The notes beneath the pieces were generated by a model that worked only from the letters and a program-made list of their open reading frames with translations, was not told the DNA's origin and ran no database searches. This document shows, in pieces, positions 1 to 11,227 of a stretch of 64,000 nt of DNA. Each line of letters opens with the position of its first letter. Position 1 is the stretch's first letter. This DNA comes from an uncultured Gammaproteobacteria bacterium (GTDB taxonomy: Bacteria > Patescibacteriota > Microgenomatia > UBA8517), in the NCBI GenBank assembly GCA_964524515.1, contig CAZGEA010000001.1:169522-233521 (forward strand), written 5' to 3'. A program made the position numbers and the translations under genes.

Positions 1-85
1 TCTAAATTTATATGTAAATGTAGGTGATAGAACTACTTACGAAGTAAAATTACCTCTCGAAGAATTAAAAGAAGGATTATTTTAG
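1..85 (+). CDS. 3' end of an upstream CDS, partial at window edge (translates ...VGDRTTYEVKLPLEELKEGLF then TAG at 83-85); hypothetical
   Basis: Open frame from position 2 to the stop at 83-85. There is no identifiable family. Confidence 0.2.
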   Translation, partial: LNLYVNVGDRTTYEVKLPLEELKEGLF

Positions 86-118
86 TCATTCTTGCTATAA
101 TATGCATGCTTGAAAAAT

Positions 119-191
119 CGGGGTGTGGCTCAGTTGGTAGAGCGCTCGCTTTGGGAGCGAGAGGCCGTGAGTTCGAATCTCGCCACCCCGA
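119..191 (+). tRNA. tRNA-Pro (anticodon TGG)
   Basis: Cloverleaf: acceptor cggggtg/caccccg, anticodon stem ctcgc/gcgag, loop tttggga (TGG), T-loop ttcgaat. A TATAAT box lies at about 97-102. CCA is not encoded. Confidence 0.85.
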
Positions 192-223
192 CAAAATATC
201 TTAGCCTCCATTTACCCTTTTTG

Positions 224-267
224 TGCTATAATTAGCTTCAAATTTGTGTTATTATTAGCTTCAAATT
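224..267 (+). promoter_or_regulatory. Extended -10 promoter (TGcTATAAT, 224-232) followed by two 14-bp direct repeats ATTAGCTTCAAATT (231-244 and 254-267); candidate operator
   Basis: Read directly from sequence. The repeats sit 23 bp centre to centre and overlap the predicted transcription start, upstream of the CPBP protease gene. Confidence 0.4.
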
Positions 268-295
268 CGCACAATCACAAAACGGAGAGTTCAAA

Positions 296-1093
296 TTGAG
301 CATCAAAGATCAGATTTCTAAATTAAATGGTCCAGTTGAAAAAGTAATCGATGCAATGGGCATACCACTCGGAAAAGCTCAGGAATTATTTGCAAAAACA
401 ATTTTTAAAATTTCACCACTCCAAAAAACTAATGGAGAAGAATTACCACAAATTCAGTTCGACTGGAAAACATTTCGAAAAACTTTTCGTATCAAGCACT
501 TTTTCATTGCGCTAATTAGTCTCTCATTGGTAATTTTTTCAGTTTTTAAATTATGGGATATCTCACCTACAATCATGAGTATCAGTGTATTAAGAACAAT
601 CTATCTTATTATCAACTATTTAGTAAACCTGTTCACGAAAGATAACAGTGAACAAATATCATCAATAATTGCAACCGGCTTAATCCTATCTTTAGTTTTA
701 TTTAGAAAACAAGTAAAAACTGTAATAGGAGAAGGACCTGATCAAGTCGCAGCAGGACTTCCACAATATGCGTTAAGAGAAGAAATAATATTTCGTGCAT
801 ACAGTCACAACTGGAATCTAATTGAAAAAATACGAGCAAATCTTTCGTTCGGACTAATACACCTTACAATGTTAATTGTCCCAATTTCGGTTGCCTTAGC
901 ACTAGCAATTGGTGGAAGCGCATTTATGCTTGTATATTTGAACAACTATAAAAAAACCAAATCAACTGAAATGGCAATCATTGAAGCAGCTACAGTCCAC
1001 ACAACTTACAATATAATTGCTTTTTCACTCGCAATTGGTAGCATTATATGGAGTTTAATTGGCAAACCAATATTGTCTCTCCTTACACATTAA
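296..1093 (+). CDS. CPBP-family intramembrane metalloprotease (CAAX protease / Abi-like)
   Basis: TTG start with GGAGAG Shine-Dalgarno 7 nt upstream. Multi-TM protein with motifs EEIIFR (EExxxR), FGLIHL (FxxxH) and HTTYN (HxxxN). Confidence 0.7.
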   Translation: MSIKDQISKLNGPVEKVIDAMGIPLGKAQELFAKTIFKISPLQKTNGEELPQIQFDWKTFRKTFRIKHFFIALISLSLVIFSVFKLWDISPTIMSISVLRTIYLIINYLVNLFTKDNSEQISSIIATGLILSLVLFRKQVKTVIGEGPDQVAAGLPQYALREEIIFRAYSHNWNLIEKIRANLSFGLIHLTMLIVPISVALALAIGGSAFMLVYLNNYKKTKSTEMAIIEAATVHTTYNIIAFSLAIGSIIWSLIGKPILSLLTH

Positions 1094-1107
1094 GTAAAAT
1101 CACAAAA

Positions 1108-1142
1108 CCTCTTTAACAAAAAATTAAAGGGGTTTTTTATTT
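1108..1142 (+). terminator. Rho-independent terminator after the CPBP gene
   Basis: Stem cctcttt / aaagggg followed by ttttttattt. Confidence 0.5.
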
Positions 1143-1174
1143 CCAAATGTTAAATGATATAATATACCTTCAAC

Positions 1175-1309
<135 letters not shown>

Positions 1310-1370
1310 ACAAAAAACCTCCTTGTTTTTTTTAGTAAACAAAGAGGCTTCAATCTCTATCTAACTAAAT

Positions 1371-1715
1371 TTATAAACTAAAGACACAAAACGAAACTTT
1401 GGGTAATATACCTACTAATGAACTAGCCATAATACTCCCATCATTTATAGCAAAAATACTAATATTCATCTTATCATTAGGATCCAAAACTGGAATCTTA
1501 TATACAATGTCTCCTGCTAGTCCAATGAAATTAAATGAAATATCAATTCTGTTTGGGTAAAACACAACAGATTTTACAATAGCATAGGCAGGCCCGATTA
1601 AACCTCCATCTATTATGTGTCCTTGTACATAAACCCTATTTCCTTTTAGGAAATTATTCAAAAGTGCTGCAGCATCACGAACATTTGATTCATCAACCGA
1701 ATATATGGAAGTCAT
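1371..1715 (-). CDS. hypothetical protein (114 aa)
   Basis: Clean ORF with a weak AAAGG Shine-Dalgarno. No recognisable motif. Confidence 0.4.
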   Translation of the reverse strand: MTSIYSVDESNVRDAAALLNNFLKGNRVYVQGHIIDGGLIGPAYAIVKSVVFYPNRIDISFNFIGLAGDIVYKIPVLDPNDKMNISIFAINDGSIMASSLVGILPKVSFCVFSL

Positions 1716-1798
1716 GGCTAAAACCTTTCATTCAAATGTAGATTTCATTGGTATATTATCATATTTCAATACTTGCTTTTTAATCTCTCTTCTTTACA

Positions 1799-2140
1799 AT
1801 GAGTTTTATGGCAAGAATGAATCCAGACGATGTTCAGAAAGAAGTTACCAAGCAAAACGATGATGTCTATGGAGACGATTCAGTAGTTGGAGGTACAGGC
1901 GGAGGTGCTGATCCAATGATTATTGACGATGTATACAAAAAGGTAACTGGAAACGAACTTGCTGACGACGAGGGTATTGATATGGCAGAAGAAGTCAGAA
2001 AAGACGAAGACTCAATTCTAAAAGATAAACCAGATAGTGAAGACGATGAAATGGAAGACAAATCTCCAATTGATGATGAATTCAGTGGAATGCATGTAGT
2101 TGGCGAAAACGAAGAGACAGAAGCCGAAGAACAAGAATAA
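1799..2140 (+). CDS. highly acidic hypothetical protein (113 aa, about 40 Asp/Glu)
   Basis: ORF with a TTGCTT-15nt-TACAAT promoter-like element at 1774-1800. The true start may be an internal ATG at 1808 or 1817. The composition is extremely acidic and low in complexity. Confidence 0.4.
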   Translation: MSFMARMNPDDVQKEVTKQNDDVYGDDSVVGGTGGGADPMIIDDVYKKVTGNELADDEGIDMAEEVRKDEDSILKDKPDSEDDEMEDKSPIDDEFSGMHVVGENEETEAEEQE

Positions 2141-2254
2141 TTTCCCCAAAAAGCCTCAATAAGATATAATAATGTTTACAATCACGATCATATCGGGATT
2201 AAGTTGTACTTGGTGGTAAGTAAGCATAGCTTGGCTTCCACCATCAGAACACAT

Positions 2255-2332
2255 GGTGGTAGTAGCTCAGTTGGTTAGAGCGCTGCTCTGTGAAAGCAGA
2301 GGTCGCCGGTTCGAGACCGGTCTACCACCCCA
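2255..2332 (+). tRNA. tRNA-His (anticodon GTG) with encoded G-1 and encoded CCA
   Basis: G-1 followed by acceptor gtggtag/ctaccac, D-stem gctc/gagc, anticodon stem ctgct/agcag with loop ctgtgaa, T-loop ttcgaga, discriminator C then CCA (2330-2332). Confidence 0.9.
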
Positions 2333-2884
2333 AATGATATTTTGAGATTGAGAAACCTCACTTTGAGCCGTATTATTAACGTTTTCGTTAGGTTCGAGCC
2401 GTTCTAATGTATTAATTTCTGTAACTGCCTGCTGAATTTTGAAAAATGGTGTTCGTGCCTCAATTGTAAGTTTTTTATCCTTTAAAAGTAGGTGCGAGCC
2501 AATTGCTCTTAAAATTATTTTACGTTCTTCAATATCCCCATCTGAAAATCTGTCTTGTGCTGTTGCAGCAAAGTCGAATGTTTTAGCGGCCAACTCTGCC
2601 CATTCATCAATATATTTATCTACTTTTGATAATAGCTCTTGCGCCCTAGCTTTTTCGACCAACAGTGATTCTTTTTTCTCTGCAAATTCCTCGTCTGAAA
2701 TTAAAATACCACCTTTATTTGCCTCGGATATTTTTAGTTCAAGTAAATTATCAATTTTTCTTACAATATCTTCATAGGATTTTTTCAATGCCAAATAACG
2801 AGTCTCTCGCGTCTCTTTTTGCTTCTCATTTACAACATTAAGCCATTTAATTGCCCAATCCACAAATTCATAGTCAAGTTTCAT
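2267..2884 (-). CDS. hypothetical coiled-coil protein whose reading frame continues antisense through tRNA-His; possibly a 3'-truncated gene remnant
   Basis: First ATG is at 2884 with an in-frame stop 15 codons upstream. The last ~20 codons are the reverse complement of the tRNA, so the native C-terminus is doubtful. The opposite-strand ORF 2439..2777 is low-complexity and rejected. Confidence 0.3.
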   Translation of the reverse strand: MKLDYEFVDWAIKWLNVVNEKQKETRETRYLALKKSYEDIVRKIDNLLELKISEANKGGILISDEEFAEKKESLLVEKARAQELLSKVDKYIDEWAELAAKTFDFAATAQDRFSDGDIEERKIILRAIGSHLLLKDKKLTIEARTPFFKIQQAVTEINTLERLEPNENVNNTAQSEVSQSQNIIWGGRPVSNRRPLLSQSSALTN

Positions 2885-2986
2885 CGTGCCTAAAATATCA
2901 AAAACCTGCTTCTCAAGTTCTTTTGCTTATTATTCTTCTGATTTGTGATATTTTTGGAATAAAGATTCACAAAAAACAAAGATAAG

Positions 2987-3388
2987 TTACTGATTGCCGG
3001 CGGTCATTTCAAGGTATCGTTTGTACTTTGGGTCTCCTTCCAATCTTTTTATTTCTGCATTAAGCTCTGTATCGGTCATTTGTGAGTAGGCATCCTCAAA
3101 AGCTATTTTATCTGCTTTATATTTTCCAAGTAACTTATAGGCTTTATCTAGCGCTGCGTCCCTAGCCCGCCAGTTTTTGCTTTTTAAGAGCGCTTGATGA
3201 GTTTTGAGCAGGTTCTCTTCTGACAAGTAGTCTTTCATCAGCTCCTGCCATCCTCTACTTTGAGTGAGCTGTTGTGGGTTTTTATAAGAGCCGGCTTTAT
3301 ATCCGGATTCTTTCATAGCCGTGGATACCGACTTTCCAGTATTTTCCAGTAATTTGTGGACGACAAGTTTTTGCTTGAGAGTGGACAT
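2987..3388 (-). CDS. phage terminase small-subunit-like HTH DNA-binding protein (Terminase_2-like)
   Basis: Starts at ATG 3388 (MSTLKQ); the longer ORF-track start at 3541 adds an unlikely hydrophobic extension. Contains the TerS-type HTH signature MKESGYKAGSYKNPQQLTQSRGWQELM, comparable to AGYS...A..S.LL. No large terminase gene is nearby. Confidence 0.45.
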   Translation of the reverse strand: MSTLKQKLVVHKLLENTGKSVSTAMKESGYKAGSYKNPQQLTQSRGWQELMKDYLSEENLLKTHQALLKSKNWRARDAALDKAYKLLGKYKADKIAFEDAYSQMTDTELNAEIKRLEGDPKYKRYLEMTAGNQ

Positions 3389-3406
3389 CTGTATATGTAG
3401 TATAAT

Positions 3407-4093
3407 ATGCCAATGCTCTCTATTGAGAGCATTTTTGTTATTTATATGGACAGAAATGAAGAAATAATTGGCTACTATTCTAATCAGCCTACATGGCAGC
3501 TTGTAAAGTTTAGTGCTTACAAGAGGCAATTTACTCATCAATTAGCAATTCACTATTTGGAACACGAAATTTTTGAGTCAGTGGACAGAGAGATGCAGCA
3601 TATCCTAAGTGGACAAAATGCAGGATTTTATGCTGGCCTTAGATTTTTGTTTGCGGAAGTTACAGCGCTATCCCATTTATATTGGGGGGTAAAATCATTT
3701 ATCCCTCGTAAGGAGAGTGCATATGTTGCCAGATTTATGAGAAAGTTCGGAGTGTTACCTCCTGAGCATGGTGTCCATTATGAAACATTCAGGCATGGAC
3801 TGATGCACTCTCATCATCCAAAGTGGATAAAAAAAGGAAATCGAATTATAGGTTGGTATATTAGTAATACAGCAAAAGCAAACAGCTTCGGAATCTTCAT
3901 TCCCGAGTTCACCGAGCAAGTTAAAAATACCATTAGTGCTTTTATTGCCGAGTTGAGGGTAGAAGAAATAGCAGGTAAAAATACCCGACTCAAAAAATTT
4001 ATTGAAGGATATACCCACACCGCCAAAGTATTGAAGCGTAGGGACTTAGGCAAATACTCAAGAACGGATTTTTCAAAAGTACCTATTACCTAA
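3407..4093 (+). CDS. hypothetical protein with a HEPN-like R-x4-H motif (FRHGLMHSHH); first gene of a four-gene cassette
   Basis: The ORF ends 1 nt before the next gene. An alternative start at ATG 3446 (MDRNEE) is more compatible with the -10-like tagtataat at 3397-3405. Histidine-rich. Family not recognised. Confidence 0.4.
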   Translation: MPMLSIESIFVIYMDRNEEIIGYYSNQPTWQLVKFSAYKRQFTHQLAIHYLEHEIFESVDREMQHILSGQNAGFYAGLRFLFAEVTALSHLYWGVKSFIPRKESAYVARFMRKFGVLPPEHGVHYETFRHGLMHSHHPKWIKKGNRIIGWYISNTAKANSFGIFIPEFTEQVKNTISAFIAELRVEEIAGKNTRLKKFIEGYTHTAKVLKRRDLGKYSRTDFSKVPIT

Positions 4094-4094
4094 G

Positions 4095-5051
4095 ATGAAG
4101 ACAAAGAATCTATTTTCAGGCAGGAAAAAGTTTGTAACCATTCCAGTTGCCGCACTTCTCGGCCTGTTTTTCCTTCCTGTAACTATTGGCATTTTACTTA
4201 TTTACTTTTCAAATAAGAAAATTAGGTTAAAACCTTTGCGTTATTCTATTGTCGGCATACTCTCCTTAATTACCCTATTTTTTGGAACTGCCTATGTAGC
4301 AGCTTTTGTATCCCCAAGCACCCCTAAACAGGAAACGAAAGAGCCGGAAGCGGTAATTTCGACAAGTCCTACGCCAATTCTTGCTATGCAAAATCAAGGC
4401 TTGGTAAAAGTAACGCGGGTGATTGATGGAGACACGATTGAAATTGAAGGTGGACAAAGGGTAAGGCTAATTGGCATAGATACTCCGGAGACAGTTGACC
4501 CAAACCGCCCTGCCGGATGCTATGGCACCGATGCCAGTAGTTTTACAAAAGCTCAACTTGAAGGCAAAGAAATAAAACTAGAAAAAGATATTTCAGAAAC
4601 AGACCAATATGGAAGATTATTGCGTTATGTATGGCTTGGAGACACTTTATTTAATGAAACCCTTGTCAAAGAAGGCTATGCTCAAGTCTCAACTTACCCG
4701 CCGGATGTAAAAAACAGCGAAAGATTTTTAGCTGCTCAAAAAGAAGCAAGAGACAATAATCGAGGTTTGTGGTCTACATGCCAAAACACCCCTGCTCCCA
4801 GTACATCTGTCTCAACTCCGAAGCCAGTTACAGCTACCCCAAAACCCAATGTGGCAACTCAACAAACCCAAACTTCCGGCTCGTGTAAGTATTCTTGCAA
4901 TTCACCGGATAGAGATTGCTCTGATTTTTCAACCCATGCAGAAGCACAAGCGTTTTTCAACTGTTGTGGATTCTCTGCCGGCAATGACCCTATGAGACTT
5001 GATAAGGCCACTGGAACAGGAAATGGAATTGCCTGCGAGAGTTTACCTTAG
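4095..5051 (+). CDS. membrane-anchored thermonuclease (SNase/micrococcal nuclease family) with C-terminal Excalibur calcium-binding domain
   Basis: Two N-terminal TM helices. SNase motifs VIDGDTIEIE, RLIGIDTPE and YGRLLRYVW. A Thr/Pro-rich linker leads into an Excalibur-like C-terminus (CSDFSTHAEAQAFF...DKATGTGNGIACE). Confidence 0.85.
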   Translation: MKTKNLFSGRKKFVTIPVAALLGLFFLPVTIGILLIYFSNKKIRLKPLRYSIVGILSLITLFFGTAYVAAFVSPSTPKQETKEPEAVISTSPTPILAMQNQGLVKVTRVIDGDTIEIEGGQRVRLIGIDTPETVDPNRPAGCYGTDASSFTKAQLEGKEIKLEKDISETDQYGRLLRYVWLGDTLFNETLVKEGYAQVSTYPPDVKNSERFLAAQKEARDNNRGLWSTCQNTPAPSTSVSTPKPVTATPKPNVATQQTQTSGSCKYSCNSPDRDCSDFSTHAEAQAFFNCCGFSAGNDPMRLDKATGTGNGIACESLP

Positions 5052-5059
5052 AATTAATT

Positions 5060-6979
5060 ATGGAAAATAAAATCTCAAAAGCGACCAGACAGCTAATTTT
5101 TGACTTTTTAAAAGCTGAGAAAATAAAGTGGTTCGGTAGTTCAGATGATATATCATTTTTGGAAAAAATATTTGATTTGGAAAATTTACCGTCGACTGAT
5201 GGTAGATACAGCAATGTAAAGGGAGATATTTTTCAACACAGACAGAATAATGCGGATTGGGAAGACGATTGGATTTTCACAGACAGCCGGTTCAACCTCC
5301 TGAATTGTGAAGATAGCATATATTGTAAATTTATAGAGGAGATTTTAAATCCACTAATAAGAGCAGAAAACGAAATAGACTCTATAATCTCCTTTGCAAA
5401 TGACGCACTCAAAAGAGATAAATATCTAATCGTAAAAAAGGAAAAAATTGGAGGAAAGCAGTTTTATCAAATTCTTCCACTTAAATGGGTTGAATCAATA
5501 AAAGATATTGAGTTCCGAGTCGTTCGAGGGAATACTCCACCCGCTTACTATATCAATGAACCTTCTAGATTGATATTAAAGTGGGACAACTGGAACGATT
5601 ACGGATATGAAACACTTTTTTACTTGGATTATGTCGATGAGAATAAGAAGGTGCATTCTATTGGTGCAGTCAAAATTGCATTTATTGCCGATAAACCTAA
5701 GGCCGATGAAAAACCACTTTCTACACGTAATGTTTTAGAAGCAGTGTTTTCAGAACTCCCTAGCAATTTTTTTTCACTAGGACAATCACCTGACTACTAT
5801 CAAAATTTATTGAGTTTGGGAAAACCTATTTATACCACCGTTCTTGAAAAACTCCGAGACGTAGTTTTTAACGAAGAAGTCTTAAAAAGTTTCCGGGAAA
5901 CTGAACCGTTTAAAGTCTCTTTGATAAGAGGTTCGGAAGCTGAAAAGGCTTTTGGTGAATCAGGAGAACTATTCAAACTAGAATATAGAAAGTTTGAAGA
6001 TACTTTAAACTTCACGTTTACTACAAGGGTCAAAAACGCTGATAACGAACATGCTGTAACGTTTGACTTTCGAAAAGGAGCGCTACCGCATAGAATACAT
6101 GTCCTGATTGGCAAGAACGGAACTGGAAAAACCATGTTTTTGAATAACCTATCTAACGCTTTGAGCGGAATCTCAGGAGAAAAGCTTAAAAGCGAGTTCG
6201 GTACTTTTGATACAAAGCCAAGTTTTAGGAAAATAATTACTTTCTCATATAGCGCTTTTGATACTTTTAACACTTCAACTCAAAACTCACTAGGATACAA
6301 ATATTGCGGCATTAGGAAAGATGACAATGAACTGTTTTCAAGGAAAGAACTAAAAAGCAAGTTTGTTAACTCTATCAGGCAGCTAAAATCAAAAGGTAGA
6401 GTTCATGATTGGAATCAAGGCATGTTAAAACTTCTGAATATACCTGAAATCGTAAATGAAGATTTTGACGAAGGGGTATGGAGCGATAGATATGACCTCC
6501 TTAGCTCTGGGCAGACAATTATTTGTACACTGCTCGCTGAAACATTGGCATTTATAGAAAAAGAATCTTTGATACTTATAGATGAGCCAGAATTACACTT
6601 ACACCCCAACAGCTTAATAGGCTTTATTAACACACTTTATTTTATTTTGAATAGCTATGATTCCTATGCAGTTTTAGCTACTCATTCTCCAATTGTCGTA
6701 AAGGAGATACCCTCAAAATATATTAATGTTTTCCGTCGTTCTGATAATAGCCCATATATTCAAACATTAAATTTTGAAACTTTTGGAGAGAATTATTCAG
6801 TCATTGCACAGGAAATTTTTGGTCTTATCGAATCTGACCACATATATAAAAAGGTTTTAGAAGAATTGTATAAGGAAACGCTTTCGATTGATGAAGTAAA
6901 AAAGTTATTTAATGGCAACCTTAGTGCAAATGCTGAAATATATCTGAATGTATTAAAAAATAACCATGAAAAAGATTAA
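5060..6979 (+). CDS. ABC/AAA_21-type ATPase (Septu PtuA-like) with an unassigned ~350-aa N-terminal domain
   Basis: Walker A GKNGTGKT at about aa 351, signature-like LSSGQ, Walker B/D-loop LILIDEPELHLHP and H-loop LATHSP. Residues 1-340 match nothing I recognise. The start lies 8 nt after the nuclease stop. Confidence 0.85.
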   Translation: MENKISKATRQLIFDFLKAEKIKWFGSSDDISFLEKIFDLENLPSTDGRYSNVKGDIFQHRQNNADWEDDWIFTDSRFNLLNCEDSIYCKFIEEILNPLIRAENEIDSIISFANDALKRDKYLIVKKEKIGGKQFYQILPLKWVESIKDIEFRVVRGNTPPAYYINEPSRLILKWDNWNDYGYETLFYLDYVDENKKVHSIGAVKIAFIADKPKADEKPLSTRNVLEAVFSELPSNFFSLGQSPDYYQNLLSLGKPIYTTVLEKLRDVVFNEEVLKSFRETEPFKVSLIRGSEAEKAFGESGELFKLEYRKFEDTLNFTFTTRVKNADNEHAVTFDFRKGALPHRIHVLIGKNGTGKTMFLNNLSNALSGISGEKLKSEFGTFDTKPSFRKIITFSYSAFDTFNTSTQNSLGYKYCGIRKDDNELFSRKELKSKFVNSIRQLKSKGRVHDWNQGMLKLLNIPEIVNEDFDEGVWSDRYDLLSSGQTIICTLLAETLAFIEKESLILIDEPELHLHPNSLIGFINTLYFILNSYDSYAVLATHSPIVVKEIPSKYINVFRRSDNSPYIQTLNFETFGENYSVIAQEIFGLIESDHIYKKVLEELYKETLSIDEVKKLFNGNLSANAEIYLNVLKNNHEKD

Positions 6980-7793
6980 TCCATATCGATGTGATAATTT
7001 TGCAGAATATAATAGCGTAGTTGCGAAGAAGTCGAATCAATCTGAAAAAATATTGCTATCTAATGTCAGCTCTAAAGTAGACAATAGATACAAAGAATAT
7101 GAAGATAATACAAGTTCACTAGAAATGATTGGCCTAATTAGTTGGGAAAAGGAAAACGCTAAGGCCTTACGAAATCTAGTTAACAGCCGCACTTATTTCT
7201 CAACGCTTAAAAGGAAGATACGACAGCTTAGCAAAAATGGCAAATGTATGTATTGCGATTTTAGTGAACATGACCCCTTAGACCACTACTTGCCCAAGAA
7301 CCCCTATCCTGAATTTTCAATTTTTAGCCTGAACTTGATACCGTCTTGCAGTAGATGTAATCGATTAAAGCACGATGAAATATTCATTAATGGAAAAAGG
7401 GTGTATCTTAATCCCTACTTTGATGCGATTGACGAAAAGCAATATGTAGTTTGTGACATTTATTTCAAAGGAAGCAATCTTCCCACACCTGAGTTTAGTA
7501 TAGAATCTTATAAAGGCGATACTCTTGCAGAAATATTTTTGACTCATTTTGAGAAGCTTAGTTTGAAAGAAAGATATGAAAATGAGGCTAACGAACTTAT
7601 AACTAATTGGGTTTCGAGAGCTGCACAGATTAAAAACATATCTGGCGATTTTAATACAAATATGAAAAACCTTATTAGAGTTGACCTTAATGCAGATAAG
7701 ACGAGATTCGGGATTAATAATTGGAGATATGCAGTAGAGAAAGCAATGATAGAAAGTGATAAATTTATAGAATATTGTAAAAATGCAGTATAG
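6966..7793 (+). CDS. HNH endonuclease (Septu PtuB-like)
   Basis: HNH core CMYCDFSEHDPLDHYLPKN...SCSRCNRLKHD (two CxxC pairs, DH, N). The start overlaps the ATPase stop by 14 nt, which indicates translational coupling. Confidence 0.8.
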   Translation: MKKINPYRCDNFAEYNSVVAKKSNQSEKILLSNVSSKVDNRYKEYEDNTSSLEMIGLISWEKENAKALRNLVNSRTYFSTLKRKIRQLSKNGKCMYCDFSEHDPLDHYLPKNPYPEFSIFSLNLIPSCSRCNRLKHDEIFINGKRVYLNPYFDAIDEKQYVVCDIYFKGSNLPTPEFSIESYKGDTLAEIFLTHFEKLSLKERYENEANELITNWVSRAAQIKNISGDFNTNMKNLIRVDLNADKTRFGINNWRYAVEKAMIESDKFIEYCKNAV

Positions 7794-7877
7794 TTATGTT
7801 AATTAAATATAAAAAATGGCACACGGAATCTTCAAAGACTTAACTTCACACCTATACTAGAATTTAAACTTTCCCCT

Positions 7878-7908
7878 CGCAGAATAAGAGCTTTCAGCAG
7901 CTCTCGTT
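7878..7908 (+). terminator. candidate intrinsic terminator downstream of the HNH gene
   Basis: Stem agagct / agctct with loop ttcagc, followed by the T-rich tail cgttctttactttcc. Confidence 0.35.
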
Positions 7909-8040
7909 CTTTACTTTCCGAATTGGTATAATAAGTGCGAATGTCGGATACCAGCCGACCCACAGTCCTTCTCATTTAAACCTTCTATTTTCAGATATAA
8001 ACTAACGCTCACTTTTTTTGTTGCTTGAGTAATAATTTCG

Positions 8041-8610
8041 TTGCTTGTATACATACTAAGTATGAAAAGAATATTAAATTCAGTACTGATGAAGAAACTA
8101 ATTCCAGCTTTCGTGATTTTTTGCGTAGGAATATATGCAGGAATTTCAATTGCACGTTTTAGACCACTTCTTTTTAATTTAAATGCAATCCCCGAAGACC
8201 AAATGGAGATAATTATTCTTTCAGAAAAATTAGGAAAATTAATAAGCTTACCCACAGACGAAAAACCTATCATTGAAACAATAACAGATCTATCGCTTTT
8301 GAAGGATAAACCTTTTTTTGCCAAAGCTGAAGTTGGAGATAAAGTTTTAATTTATGAAAAATCTGCAATGGCAATACTTTATCGTCCTGCAAAAAATATA
8401 ATCATAAATACTGTATCACCAAATTATACCGAAGCAATTTTATCCATTAATTTACCCTCGCCAACGCCAACTCTAATCCCCACTCCAGTTCCGACTGCCG
8501 AACCAACTCTCGTTCCAACACCAGAACCCACCATTGAACCCACACTAATAGCCTCCCCTTCAGCTACTCTAACCACAACAGCCAGCCCTAAGCCTTCAGT
8601 AAAACCATAA
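8041..8610 (+). CDS. membrane-anchored hypothetical protein with C-terminal Pro/Thr-rich repeat linker
   Basis: N-terminal TM helix and a C-terminal PTPTLIPTPVPTAEPTLVPTPEPT repeat. The start is probably the internal ATG at 8062 (MKRIL). Overlapping minus ORFs 7911..8324 and 8424..8666 are rejected. Confidence 0.45.
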   Translation: MLVYILSMKRILNSVLMKKLIPAFVIFCVGIYAGISIARFRPLLFNLNAIPEDQMEIIILSEKLGKLISLPTDEKPIIETITDLSLLKDKPFFAKAEVGDKVLIYEKSAMAILYRPAKNIIINTVSPNYTEAILSINLPSPTPTLIPTPVPTAEPTLVPTPEPTIEPTLIASPSATLTTTASPKPSVKP

Positions 8611-8675
8611 AGTTGTTCAAATTCGAGATCTTGTTTAATGGATGCTACAATACTAATTAGGTTCAAATTAACATT

Positions 8676-9224
8676 ATGAAGTCAACTGAAAAACAGCCAT
8701 CCCCAATCACATTTGAAGCCAAACTAATCAAAATTGACTCATCAAATATTGTCAGGCTTCCCCAAGCTGCAAGTGACAAACTCCCCTCTCGTGGTATGAC
8801 AATGGTTGAAGGAACAATCAATGGTTCACCATTTGTCTCTCCATTAGAGCCTGATGGTAAAAAAAGTCATTGGTTCAAATTAGAAAAATCAAATGGAATA
8901 AAAATTGGTGAAACTTTAACTATTAAAATAAATCCAATCAAAGATTGGCCAGAGCCAATAGTTCCAAATGATATTAAAAAAGGTTTATCAAATTCTAAAG
9001 TTGCACAAAATCTATGGAATGATATTACACCAATGGCCAGATGGGATTGGATAAGATGGATAAATTCAACCAAAAACCCAGTTACCCGCAATCACAGAAT
9101 TGATGTAATGTGTTCAAAACTCAACAAAGGAAACAGAAGACCTTGTTGCTTTAATCGAACAGAATGCACTGATCCACTTCTATCAAACAAAGGTATTCTC
9201 CTCGAGAATATATCCCATAGTTGA
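8676..9224 (+). CDS. DUF1905 plus YdeI/OmpD-associated (bacteriocin-protection) family protein
   Basis: N-terminal DUF1905-like segment (MVEGTINGSPFVSPLEPDGKKSHWF) and C-terminal YdeI-like segment (ARWDWIRWINSTKNPVTRNHRI). Confidence 0.55.
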   Translation: MKSTEKQPSPITFEAKLIKIDSSNIVRLPQAASDKLPSRGMTMVEGTINGSPFVSPLEPDGKKSHWFKLEKSNGIKIGETLTIKINPIKDWPEPIVPNDIKKGLSNSKVAQNLWNDITPMARWDWIRWINSTKNPVTRNHRIDVMCSKLNKGNRRPCCFNRTECTDPLLSNKGILLENISHS

Positions 9225-9288
9225 TTTATTTAATTAATTTATTGTATAATTGACACCTAGTTATTTTATAAACTAGAAAGGGTTCAAA

Positions 9289-9543
9289 ATGGACACGTTC
9301 ATTGAAAAAGTTTCTCGCAACAAAATTCTTCGCCCAATATTCAAATTTTTCTTATGGGATATTGTCTACCATTGTGAAGTATGTGGGAAAAGGATGGATA
9401 AACTAACCTTGAATGATTTTGCACCAGTCGAGCGAGCAGAAGTAGTAAGGGAAAATGCACAATGGATGCTCAATCGCGCATTTAAATGTCGAAACGAAAG
9501 CTGCCCCGAAAGCAAAAAAGAAGGCGGTCACATGATCGGCTAA
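9289..9543 (+). CDS. small zinc-ribbon protein (CxxC...C...C), hypothetical
   Basis: ORF with an AAAGGG Shine-Dalgarno. Cysteines form CEVCGK ... CRNESC. Confidence 0.35.
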   Translation: MDTFIEKVSRNKILRPIFKFFLWDIVYHCEVCGKRMDKLTLNDFAPVERAEVVRENAQWMLNRAFKCRNESCPESKKEGGHMIG

Positions 9544-9572
9544 CAACAAATTTTTATGTAACACAATCAAAT

Positions 9573-9610
9573 GGCTCTGCCTAATAAAAAAAGCAGAGCC
9601 TTTTTCTTTT
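9573..9610 (+). terminator. Rho-independent terminator
   Basis: Perfect 8-bp stem ggctctgc / gcagagcc followed by tttttctttt. Confidence 0.6.
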
Positions 9611-9630
9611 AAACCTGTATAATTAAACGA

Positions 9631-10023
9631 ATGAATAAAGACATTCAAGCTTACAACAATATTCAAACTGGCGAAAATAAATCTATCTGCCAGTCACTAG
9701 GCAAAATTATTAATGAAAATCTTCCAAATTCAGAAAATAAAATCTGGCATGGCCATCCAGTTTGGTTTTTAGAAGGAAACCCAATCGTAGGATATGCAAA
9801 ATTAAAAGATTGCATTCAATTATTATTTTGGAGCGGTCAATCATTTGATGAGCCAAATTTAGTTAGTGAAGGCACTTTTAAGGCTGCACAGTTCCGATAT
9901 ACATCCATTGATCAAATAAACGAAAAAGATTTAATTCGTTGGCTTGAAAAATCACAAAAAATTCAATGGGACTATAAAAATATAGTCAAACGCCGTGGAA
10001 AATTAGAGAAAATTATAAAATAA
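9631..10023 (+). CDS. DUF1801 (YdhG-like) domain protein; probably leaderless
   Basis: TGTATAAT -10 box ends about 8 nt before the ATG. DUF1801-like sequence. Confidence 0.5.
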   Translation: MNKDIQAYNNIQTGENKSICQSLGKIINENLPNSENKIWHGHPVWFLEGNPIVGYAKLKDCIQLLFWSGQSFDEPNLVSEGTFKAAQFRYTSIDQINEKDLIRWLEKSQKIQWDYKNIVKRRGKLEKIIK

Positions 10024-10078: not shown

Positions 10079-11227
10079 ATGTTAAATAACAACGATATGA
10101 CACCAGAAAGATCAAAAGATATTACAAATTTAAATGACCCACAAGTTTTAGTTTCTGACGTTCTAAAAATGCGTGAACTAAATCCAGCCAATAGAATGGC
10201 CAAGTTCTTCCCTACAGATTATTTTTTAAGCCAAACACCAGCAGTTCAAGCAGAAATCTCAAAAATTGTAATTGCAGGACTTGCAAACAACGATAGCGAA
10301 ATTGGAGCTTATGCTATGGCAACAACTGACTACGACACTTTTAGTCCAGTTTTAGATCCAATTATCCAAGATTATCATGCAGTTACCCCAGAATTTAAAT
10401 TTCAAGGAAATTGGGACATAAACGGATTAGATTTAGATTTAAAAAAGGTTGATCTTCAATTATCAGATGTTTCAATGAGAGTACGTGTTGCAAGAAATGT
10501 TTCAGGTTGGCCAATGACTGGAAGCATGTCACAAGATGATAGAGTTAATTTTGAAAATTACATGGTCGAAACAGTATTTGAAAAAATGATCTCAAATCCA
10601 AAGTATGGTGGAAGATACGTATCCCTCACTCCTGGATCAAAATATCAAATTTCAGATGATGAATATAACCAATTGGTCGCAGAACACAAAATGTACAAAG
10701 ACATGAGTGCTGATCCTCATCTTGCTGCAGCAGGAATCAGTGGTGATTGGCCATATGGAAGAGGAATGTATGTTTCAGCAGATGGTGGATCAATTGTATG
10801 GGTTAACGAAGAAGATCATTTAAGAATCATGAATATGAAAAAAGGTTCCGATCTATCAACTATTTTCAACGGACTCAGAGAAGAATTGGATTTAATCGAA
10901 TCACTTGGTGTTCCATTTGCAAGATCTGAAAAATATGGCTATGTCACAAGCTGTCCATCAAATTTAGGTACAGGAATGCGCGCAAGCTTACATTTGGCTC
11001 TTCCAAACTTAACTGAAAACGGTAAAAACACCGATAAATTAAAAAATATTTTAAAGGAAAACAAACTAAACGTATCAGTTCGCGGAATAGGTGGAGAACA
11101 CACAGCAGCTGGTGAAGGTGGAATAGTTGATATCTCACCAAGAGGTAGAATGATTCCAGAAAATCAAGTCATAACTCAGCTTTACGACGCAGCAGCAAAA
11201 CTCTTAAGTCTAGAAAAAAGCGCTTAA
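10079..11227 (+). CDS. phosphagen kinase, eukaryote-type arginine kinase family (ATP:guanidino phosphotransferase)
   Basis: Active-site CPSNLGTGMRAS, NEEDHLRIM, WPYGRGMY and C-terminal RGIGGEHT...GGIVDIS. The N-terminal small domain (GAYAMATTDYDTFSPVLDPIIQDYH) matches arthropod arginine kinase, not McsB-type bacterial kinases. Confidence 0.85.
   Translation: MLNNNDMTPERSKDITNLNDPQVLVSDVLKMRELNPANRMAKFFPTDYFLSQTPAVQAEISKIVIAGLANNDSEIGAYAMATTDYDTFSPVLDPIIQDYHAVTPEFKFQGNWDINGLDLDLKKVDLQLSDVSMRVRVARNVSGWPMTGSMSQDDRVNFENYMVETVFEKMISNPKYGGRYVSLTPGSKYQISDDEYNQLVAEHKMYKDMSADPHLAAAGISGDWPYGRGMYVSADGGSIVWVNEEDHLRIMNMKKGSDLSTIFNGLREELDLIESLGVPFARSEKYGYVTSCPSNLGTGMRASLHLALPNLTENGKNTDKLKNILKENKLNVSVRGIGGEHTAAGEGGIVDISPRGRMIPENQVITQLYDAAAKLLSLEKSA

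Follow-up and report, generated by a model that had tools for sequence, protein, structure and literature searches.

The described systems closest to the locus reported here are Septu, AbiJ and the Ea59/Ea31 pair of phage lambda. In the published model of the Septu proteins PtuA and PtuB (PMC12819146), the HNH nuclease is bound by an ABC-ATPase oligomer; under the control of the nucleotide state or of a phage cue, DNA is nicked and/or tRNA is cleaved, and the infection aborts. In the Bacillus cereus group, calls of the PADLOC candidate PDC-M01 coincide with the Septu calls of DefenseFinder (PMC11811056). AbiJ-NTD3, a domain proposed in 2013 to act as a sensor or an antitoxin, was described as fused to 'a distinct group of ABC ATPases' (PMC3710099), and in the same work Anantharaman et al. 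defined the HEPN active site as an Rx4-6H motif with a polar residue after the arginine. In lambda, ea31 and ea59 are non-essential genes of the b region (PMC10695390). Here, a computational analysis was carried out on four co-directional genes, g1 to g4 (Table 1), located in a 64,000-nucleotide stretch of contig CAZGEA010000001.1 (the window). An earlier reading of the DNA letters, called below the sequence-only reading, had taken them for a possible new multi-component variant of Septu. As judged from their sequences, g3 and g4 are an intact Septu-like pair of the Ea59/Ea31 type, the architecture of which is known. The four genes are likely to represent an island of three functionally independent modules, namely this pair, a solo HEPN-like protein (g1) and a surface nuclease of the staphylococcal type (SNase, g2), whose co-transcription would probably result from tight packing alone.

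An ATPase and an HNH nuclease of the Ea59/Ea31 type

The N-terminus of g3 was identified as the Pfam domain AbiJ_NTD3 (PF18860, 2e-42, aa 4-138), and its C-terminal part as an ABC ATPase matched by the Pfam families AAA_21 (4e-12), AAA_15 and ABC_tran. The N-terminally extended ABC ATPase of the sequence-only reading is thereby confirmed; the extension is no novelty, the fusion of AbiJ-NTD3 to an ABC ATPase having been reported already in 2013 (PMC3710099). In the PADLOC library, g3 matched PDC-M01A (8e-141) and, over aa 170-637, the PtuA1 model PDLC00282 (3.4e-81). Another PDC-M01A model (PDLC04240, 639 positions) covers residues 30-630 and includes most of the NTD3 region. Four motifs were invariant in 22 full-length homologues: GKNGTGKT at 351-358 (Walker A), LSSGQ at 482-486 (signature), DE at 508-509 (Walker B) and TH(S) at 541-543 (H-loop). 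When a profile of the g3 family was compared with the PDB, the best relative was the retron I-A PtuA (1.2e-14), followed by the Septu PtuA 8ee4 (2e-6) and then by AriA and OLD.

These data bear on the reading of g3 as a housekeeping repair ATPase of the SMC/RecF/RecN/SbcC type, with g4 as a repair nuclease. The sequence-only reading had named RecF, RecN and SbcC as the families to look for, and the only matches returned, to SMC_N (E = 0.043) and to recF (E = 0.065), were weak and sub-threshold and did not extend beyond the Walker A region. Against these stand the full-length PDC-M01A and PtuA1 matches, the identity of the PDB relatives (PtuA, AriA, OLD), the patchy, island-borne distribution and the foreign composition of the genes, and we regard a repair function as extremely unlikely.

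The product of g4 matched PDC-M01B (4e-55) and PtuB1 (4e-11), the latter match being limited to aa 72-141. The Pfam HNH family was found below threshold (E = 0.0038), and TIGR02646 gave 19.9 bits for a cutoff of 52. Among 40 homologues, no variation was seen at residues C94, C97, D106, H107, N123, C128, C131 and N132, which compose the pattern CxxC...DH...N...CxxC-N, which is that of an HNH/zinc-finger core. The PDC-M01B match and these invariant residues support the HNH nuclease that had been predicted. An AlphaFold2 model of g4 built from the single sequence reached a predicted local distance difference test (pLDDT) score of 34 and was discarded. As adjacent genes matching PDC-M01A and PDC-M01B, g3 and g4 constitute a PDC-M01 locus under the PADLOC definition. 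The Septu signature that the sequence-only reading had recognized in the succession of an ATPase and an HNH protein is thus corroborated by the PDC-M01A/B and PtuA1/PtuB1 matches and by PtuA as the nearest solved relative.

In a tblastn search of the GenBank phages, the lambda-type Ea59 aligned end to end with aa 150-638 of g3 (29% identity, 2e-59), and Ea31 aligned over its full length with aa 10-267 of g4 (24% identity, 4e-14). The lambda proteins themselves are recognized by the same models (Ea59 by PDC-M01A, 8e-202, and PtuA1, 9e-185; Ea31 by PDC-M01B, 6e-113). The lambda-type pair was read in Escherichia phage HK630 (JQ086376.1, positions 2998-5462; locus L262) and in the lambda records H2-H10. 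None of the papers searched linked Ea59/Ea31 to defence. The lambda genes, to which no role is assigned, belong to a candidate defence family and make it readily accessible to experiments in E. coli. The g3/g4 family is also common on plasmids (161 records).

Alternatively, the pair could be no host immunity but a selfish or phage-serving module, used by a former prophage or integrative element for superinfection exclusion or for competition between elements, which would now be inert leftover cargo. Such an origin is suggested by the position of the Ea59/Ea31 family beside int/attP in lambda-like phages, by its occurrence on 80 IMG/VR viral contigs, by the foreign island with a dead recombinase in which the window pair lies (see below) and by the dispensability of ea31 and ea59 in lambda (PMC10695390). 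The intact state of both open reading frames (ORFs) and the conservation of their catalytic motifs argue against decay, and the pair is common on chromosomes and plasmids also. Moreover, the host itself usually benefits from defence genes carried on prophages, so that this explanation, which we consider unlikely, differs from a defence role mainly in the beneficiary.

In metagenome loci, AbiJ_NTD3 was found fused to the Abi_C HEPN domain (L108, L118 and others), to TIR, to a protein kinase, and to HTH_17 with a PNP_UDP_1 phosphorylase; the varied fusions were seen in L108, L118, L127, L130, L132 and others. Given this swapping among HEPN, TIR, kinase, PNP and ABC-ATPase effectors, AbiJ-NTD3 may well be a phage-sensing module that is portable. 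A single-protein metagenome scan for close relatives of g3 gave mostly proteins carrying AbiJ_NTD3 only. An antisense ORF inside g3 (5830-6135, minus strand) was considered and rejected: its tblastn matches in L094 and L096-L098 derive from the conserved ATPase on the sense strand, and they are no evidence of a gene.

Neighbourhoods of the pair and of the two upstream genes

Homologues of g1, g2 and g4 were sought by tblastn around g3 homologues in 80 loci from species-representative genomes, 67 metagenome loci and 80 IMG/VR loci. A full-length ATPase match was present in 157 loci, 80 from genomes of many phyla and 77 of metagenome or viral origin. Directly downstream of the ATPase, a g4 homologue was found in 152 of the 157 (80/80 genome loci and 72/77 others), the five loci lacking it being cut at contig ends. 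No homologue of g1 was detected in any of the 157 full-length loci, and an SNase gene lay near the pair in a single one (L211), where it shares 28% identity with g2, is on the opposite strand and is 1.4 kb away. After clustering of the flanking ORFs, no protein family was common to more than 19 of 162 loci.

The closest relatives, four loci among L094-L099 with 40-54% identity on Patescibacteria-type contigs, were read separately. In L096, a g2 homologue lies 2.2 kb ahead of the ATPase, with a Big_6 protein gene and one other gene in between; in L097 and L098 the upstream genes are unrelated, and large serine recombinases are present in intact form; L094 begins at the ATPase. None of the four contains a g1 homologue, and neither in L211 nor in L096 is the g2 homologue adjacent to the ATPase/HNH pair.

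The reverse examination gave the same picture. The g1 homologue lies beside riboflavin genes and an AAA_18 gene in L001, stands alone in L007 and has an integrase in its neighbourhood in L010; no SNase, ATPase or HNH gene was found in these three contexts. The close homologues of g2 (55-62% identity) are likewise located in contexts without the pair. In L247/L263 (6001-9467), a g2 homologue (55-59% identity) is followed by Mrr_cat-like and DUF2726 genes, with a serine recombinase; in L250 (6001-9187), a homologue in the same range of identity follows an integrase and precedes DUF4238, Mrr_cat and NYN genes; in L249 it is in an HTH/S26 region, and in L264 it is among LysM, peptidase and Wzy envelope genes. 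Since the ATPase/HNH pairing is conserved and the contexts of g1 and g2 are unrelated to it, the conserved unit is one of two genes, and g1 and g2 travel independently. Its linkage to g1 and g2 probably arose by chance when the island was assembled in a very compact genome.

The packing of the four genes is in agreement with this conclusion. The ORF listing gives four plus-strand ORFs in series, of 228 (3407-4093), 318, 639 and 275 aa, with a gap of 1 nt between g1 and g2, a gap of 8 nt between g2 and g3 and an overlap of 14 nt between g3 and g4, exactly as the sequence-only reading had described. Coding sequence makes up 93% of the window; same-strand neighbours are separated by a median gap of 7 nt, and 56% of these gaps do not exceed 10 nt. 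The tight packing of g1-g4 is not above the genome background, and it carries little information because a 7-nt median gap is the baseline of this genome. In a 93%-coding genome, close gene spacing is no evidence of an operon-level system.

Downstream of g4, the hairpin AGAGCT-TTCAGC-AGCTCT, followed by CGTTCTTTAC, was located at 7887-7904, 94 nt past the stop codon. It is weak, with a 6-bp stem, and a regional scan yielded four terminator-like sites for 4.4 expected from shuffled sequences. The terminal hairpin with its T-rich tail reported earlier is therefore present, but its terminator signal is weak, and such sites are no more frequent in the region than in shuffled sequences. The non-coding gap of about 250 bp noted after the cassette is real: the stretch from 7794 to 8040/8061 (about 250 nt) holds no plausible gene. 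It showed no unusual folding (z = -0.03) and no Rfam match.

If the four genes were instead one new defence operon, it would be a Septu variant that recruits two further effectors, a HEPN ribonuclease (RNase) and an exported nuclease. The common orientation with such short spacings, the raised G+C content at third codon positions (GC3) of all four genes, the single promoter-like site 5' and single hairpin 3', and the g2 homologue upstream of the ATPase in L096 are compatible with this proposal, and a HEPN protein close to AbiJ-NTD3 is suggestive, as this domain is classically HEPN-fused. The survey opposes it: g1 occurs in 0/157 loci, the SNase is never adjacent and is on the opposite strand in L211, the homologues of g1 and g2 are found in contexts without the pair, and the spacing is the genome norm. 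In addition, g1 is not a HEPN of the AbiJ (Abi_C) type, and a nuclease outside the cell has no physical means of acting together with an ATPase/HNH complex in the cytoplasm. A single four-gene operon system is in our view very unlikely, and the multi-component system of the sequence-only reading is not upheld: g1 and the SNase essentially do not co-occur with the pair, g1 being in none of the 157 loci and the SNase never next to it.

Several points nevertheless weigh against the reading of three independent modules around a Septu-like pair. When the g4 profile was compared with the PDB, solved PtuB matched in the HNH core alone, the NCBIfam equivalog for the retron-type PtuA gave 53.9 bits on g3 for a cutoff of 500, and PDC-M01 is an unpublished PADLOC candidate. 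The g2 homologue near the pair in L096, the closest relative with upstream context, leaves a small chance of a lineage-specific functional coupling, and so do the common orientation of the four genes and their one promoter-like and one terminator-like site. Close relatives with context (at least 40% identity) number only four, the other 150-odd loci having 25-38% identity and belonging to other phyla. The biochemical activities of all four proteins, together with the anti-phage role, are what we infer. A recruitment of g1 and/or g2 as lineage-specific accessory parts of the NTD3-PtuA/HNH system nonetheless appears highly improbable. In one version of it, g1 may be a second effector controlled via AbiJ-NTD3, as a split-gene mirror of the NTD3-HEPN fusion of AbiJ. 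If true, the locus would represent a variant of Septu with three or four genes, peculiar to this Patescibacteria lineage.

The HEPN-like protein and the membrane nuclease

The ORF of g1 is open from 3407, but the most likely start is the ATG at 3446, which gives 215 aa, because 29 homologues (165-218 aa) align from there and the -10-like element TAGTATAAT abuts 3407. An AlphaFold2 model, computed from an alignment of 30 homologues (pLDDT 93.4), predicts a four-helix up-down bundle resembling known HEPN structures. In the motif R116-H/N117-G-L-M-H121, R116 and H121 are invariant across the 30 sequences, and residue 117 is a histidine except in two sequences which have an asparagine. Among 60 distant members, the arginine, H117, the glycine and H121 are at least 90% conserved. 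In the model, helix 108-119 ends at this Rx4-6H motif, where the following loop starts, and the residue after the arginine is polar.

No match to g1 was obtained in Pfam, NCBIfam, PADLOC or PHROG, and the 60 family members scanned gave neither a Pfam HEPN match nor a match to any family common to another member. Sequence searches of the PDB with single-family and extended profiles gave noise only. A Foldseek search of the PDB with the model found nothing, so the HEPN assignment stands at the level of fold plus motif. The HEPN-like character proposed for g1 is thus supported by the bundle fold of the model and the conserved Rx4H motif, with a curated-family match being absent. We suggest from the model that g1 is a putative metal-independent RNase or toxin, predicted to be stand-alone.

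The g1 family is small: a search of 1.84 billion proteins at E<=1e-3 gave 125 representatives. It occurs almost only in metagenomes of small-genome bacteria, and no member was found in IMG/VR. This HEPN-like family is characterized by the motif RHGLMHSHHPKW and has no Pfam model. In L010 (1928-3114), the gene 20 nt downstream of a g1 homologue (51% identity) encodes a protein with a weak HEPN_Cthe2314 match, and an integrase comes next; two HEPN-type genes are in tandem there, in another mobile context.

The SNase domain of g2 is complete (PF00565, 8.7e-26, profile positions 1-106 of 107) and is preceded by the N-terminal hydrophobic segments seen in the hydropathy profile, as anticipated for a membrane thermonuclease. 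After it come a linker rich in Thr and Pro and an Excalibur-like tail rich in Cys (aa 262-318). The Excalibur domain that had been assigned to g2 did not hold at threshold: PF05901 gave 15.2 bits on the isolated 57-aa tail, for a cutoff of 22, and no match on the whole protein. PF05901 is present in some g2 homologues, which indicates that the tail is a degenerate Excalibur relative. The NucI model reached 139.6 bits for a cutoff of 250. A match to the PADLOC model 'SNc+LTD' was also recorded; none of the papers searched explains this model. More than 7,400 homologues of g2 were counted, the named ones being mostly 'thermonuclease family protein [Patescibacteria]'. On sequence grounds, g2 is most likely extracellular and would act on external DNA, either in nucleotide scavenging or in protection of the surface.

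Directly downstream of the SNase gene, defence-like genes of nuclease type are found in L247/L263 and in L250, in islands that have serine or tyrosine recombinases, and the Septu-like pair holds this position in the window. The SNase gene may mark a place where serine-recombinase elements of these bacteria repeatedly take up defence cargo, or this may be a coincidence.

The island, a proposed mechanism and known systems

The features of the region are collected in Table 1. All six genes between 2267 and 7793 have a GC3 of 0.29-0.43, whereas the value is 0.20 +/- 0.03 in 21 genes elsewhere in the window, none of them above 0.25; the highest value of the block (0.43) is that of the 133-aa gene divergent from g1. 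In tblastn, residues 340-437 of the 537-aa serine recombinase of L097 aligned to positions 2636-2908 of the window (34% identity, 6e-11), at a minus-strand pseudogene whose frame enters the antisense strand of the tRNA-His gene. The N-terminal catalytic domain of a serine recombinase was not found anywhere in the window, whereas intact Resolvase/Recombinase genes are present in the related islands L097, L098 and L247. The foreign GC3 and the recombinase fragment together indicate a foreign island, most simply the decayed remnant of a serine-recombinase integrative element. The block 2333-7910 would thus be a horizontally acquired island beside tRNA-His, and this tRNA gene is its left border and likely the former integration site.

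Direct and inverted repeats were searched between 2150 and 9300 as possible attachment sites; short chance-level repeats were obtained and no copy of the tRNA-His 3'-end, a result uninformative for serine recombinases, for which no repeat is expected. Megablast of the whole block against GenBank phages gave no match, and no backbone genes beyond the query genes were common to the window island and the islands of the g1, g2 and g3 homologues. The host genome is probably that of a small-genome bacterium of the Patescibacteria/candidate phyla radiation (CPR) type, and the organism is probably episymbiotic.

Table 1. Features of the island and its borders (window coordinates).
Feature	Position	Strand	Details
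tRNA-Gly	1175-1247		
tRNA-His (GTG)	2256-2332	+	ARAGORN; Rfam tRNA 67.9 bits
Large serine recombinase remnant, pseudogene	2267-2884	-	C-terminal coiled-coil part alone remains
133-aa protein, divergent from g1	2987-3388	-	no Pfam, PHROG or NCBIfam library match better than E = 0.026
Promoter-like site TTGAGA-17-TAGTAT/TATAAT and palindrome	3375-3433	+	motif scans
g1, stand-alone HEPN-like protein	3446-4093	+	215 aa; start at ATG 3446; ORF open from 3407
g2, membrane-anchored staphylococcal-type nuclease	4095-5051	+	hydrophobic ~aa 13-37 and 49-73; SNase aa 99-231
g3, PtuA-like ABC ATPase, Ea59/PDC-M01A type	5060-6979	+	NTD3 aa 4-138 (nt 5069-5473); Ea59-like core aa 150-638
g4, HNH (beta-beta-alpha-Me) nuclease, Ea31/PDC-M01B type	6966-7793	+	overlaps g3 by 14 nt

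Both tRNA genes cited in the sequence-only reading exist, but they are not right next to the cassette: tRNA-His and tRNA-Gly are 1.1 and 2.2 kb upstream of g1, respectively, and two minus-strand ORFs separate tRNA-His from g1. Another of its claims about the surroundings, a phage TerS-like neighbour, received no support from Pfam or PHROG for the gene at 2987-3388; the listed ORF of this gene extends to 3541, and the first ATG places its start at 3388. In the 57-nt divergent intergenic region between this gene and g1, a perfect 9-bp palindrome, AATGCTCTC-TATT-GAGAGCATT (3412-3433), followed by a T-run, comes just after the promoter-like site. From its sequence, it may be an operator or a leader hairpin.

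An Rfam scan of positions 1-10000 returned three tRNAs, one sub-threshold Yfr10 match and no other RNA element. The Yfr10 match, at 1075-1148 (plus strand), just 5' of tRNA-Gly, scores 32.8 bits for a gathering score of 43 (E = 0.08) with this cyanobacterial small RNA and is probably due to chance. Further downstream, a 382-aa plus-strand ORF (10079-11227) contains CPSNLGTGMRAS, which we take to be the signature of the ATP:guanido phosphotransferases (arginine-kinase/McsB type).

For the three modules, the following functions are proposed. By analogy with the solved Septu and retron PtuAB complexes, an oligomer of the g3 ABC ATPase would hold the g4 HNH nuclease inactive. A phage cue, plausibly read by the fused AbiJ-NTD3, which is the likely sensor or inhibitory module, would release the nuclease; once released, it would act on DNA and/or tRNA and so abort the infection. 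Separately, g1, with its intact Rx4H motif, would be a solo putative RNase toxin or abortive-infection effector. As for g2, it would degrade external DNA; SNases of this type are very abundant in Patescibacteria. Little changes for the field, except that the false lead of a four-component Septu variant is removed and that an NTD3-bearing Septu-like pair is documented on a decayed serine-recombinase island in a small-genome bacterium.

Compared with the known systems, each module has a recognizable counterpart. The SNase domain and N-terminal membrane anchor of g2 are likewise those of the staphylococcal thermonucleases (Nuc/NucI, Nuc2 type); in contrast to Nuc/NucI, g2 is below the NucI equivalog cutoff and adds the Thr/Pro linker and the degenerate Excalibur-like, Cys-rich tail. 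The counterparts of g1 are the HEPN toxins (HEPN/MNT 5yep and 8xdj; TTHA0636 1wwp), from which it differs by the absence of a sequence match to a Pfam HEPN family or a PDB chain, by an additional N-terminal beta-hairpin and a beta-insert after the motif, and, with respect to the HEPN/MNT toxins, by the lack of an adjoining MNT antitoxin gene.

With AbiJ, g3 shares the AbiJ_NTD3 domain (2e-42), but an ABC ATPase replaces the Abi_C HEPN; g3 has no HEPN domain and its effector in trans is the HNH protein; g1 is HEPN-like but has no Abi_C match and is not linked to NTD3 proteins elsewhere. As in Septu, g3 and g4 are a two-gene unit in which an ABC ATPase is followed by an HNH nuclease. Relative to the Septu PtuA, g3 adds an AbiJ_NTD3 of about 140 aa and an Ea59-type region of about 190 aa ahead of the P-loop; g4 resembles solved PtuB in the HNH core only, and the host is Patescibacteria-like. 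Stand-alone Septu PtuA has a leucine at the position of the signature-motif glutamine of the retron Ec78 PtuA (PMC12819146), whereas the signature motif of g3, LSSGQ, contains the glutamine. Finally, the lambda genes ea59 and ea31 have the same order and the same overlap as g3 and g4. The lambda pair is phage-borne, beside int/attP, and its Ea59 is devoid of AbiJ_NTD3, whereas the window pair carries this domain and is located in a dead chromosomal island.

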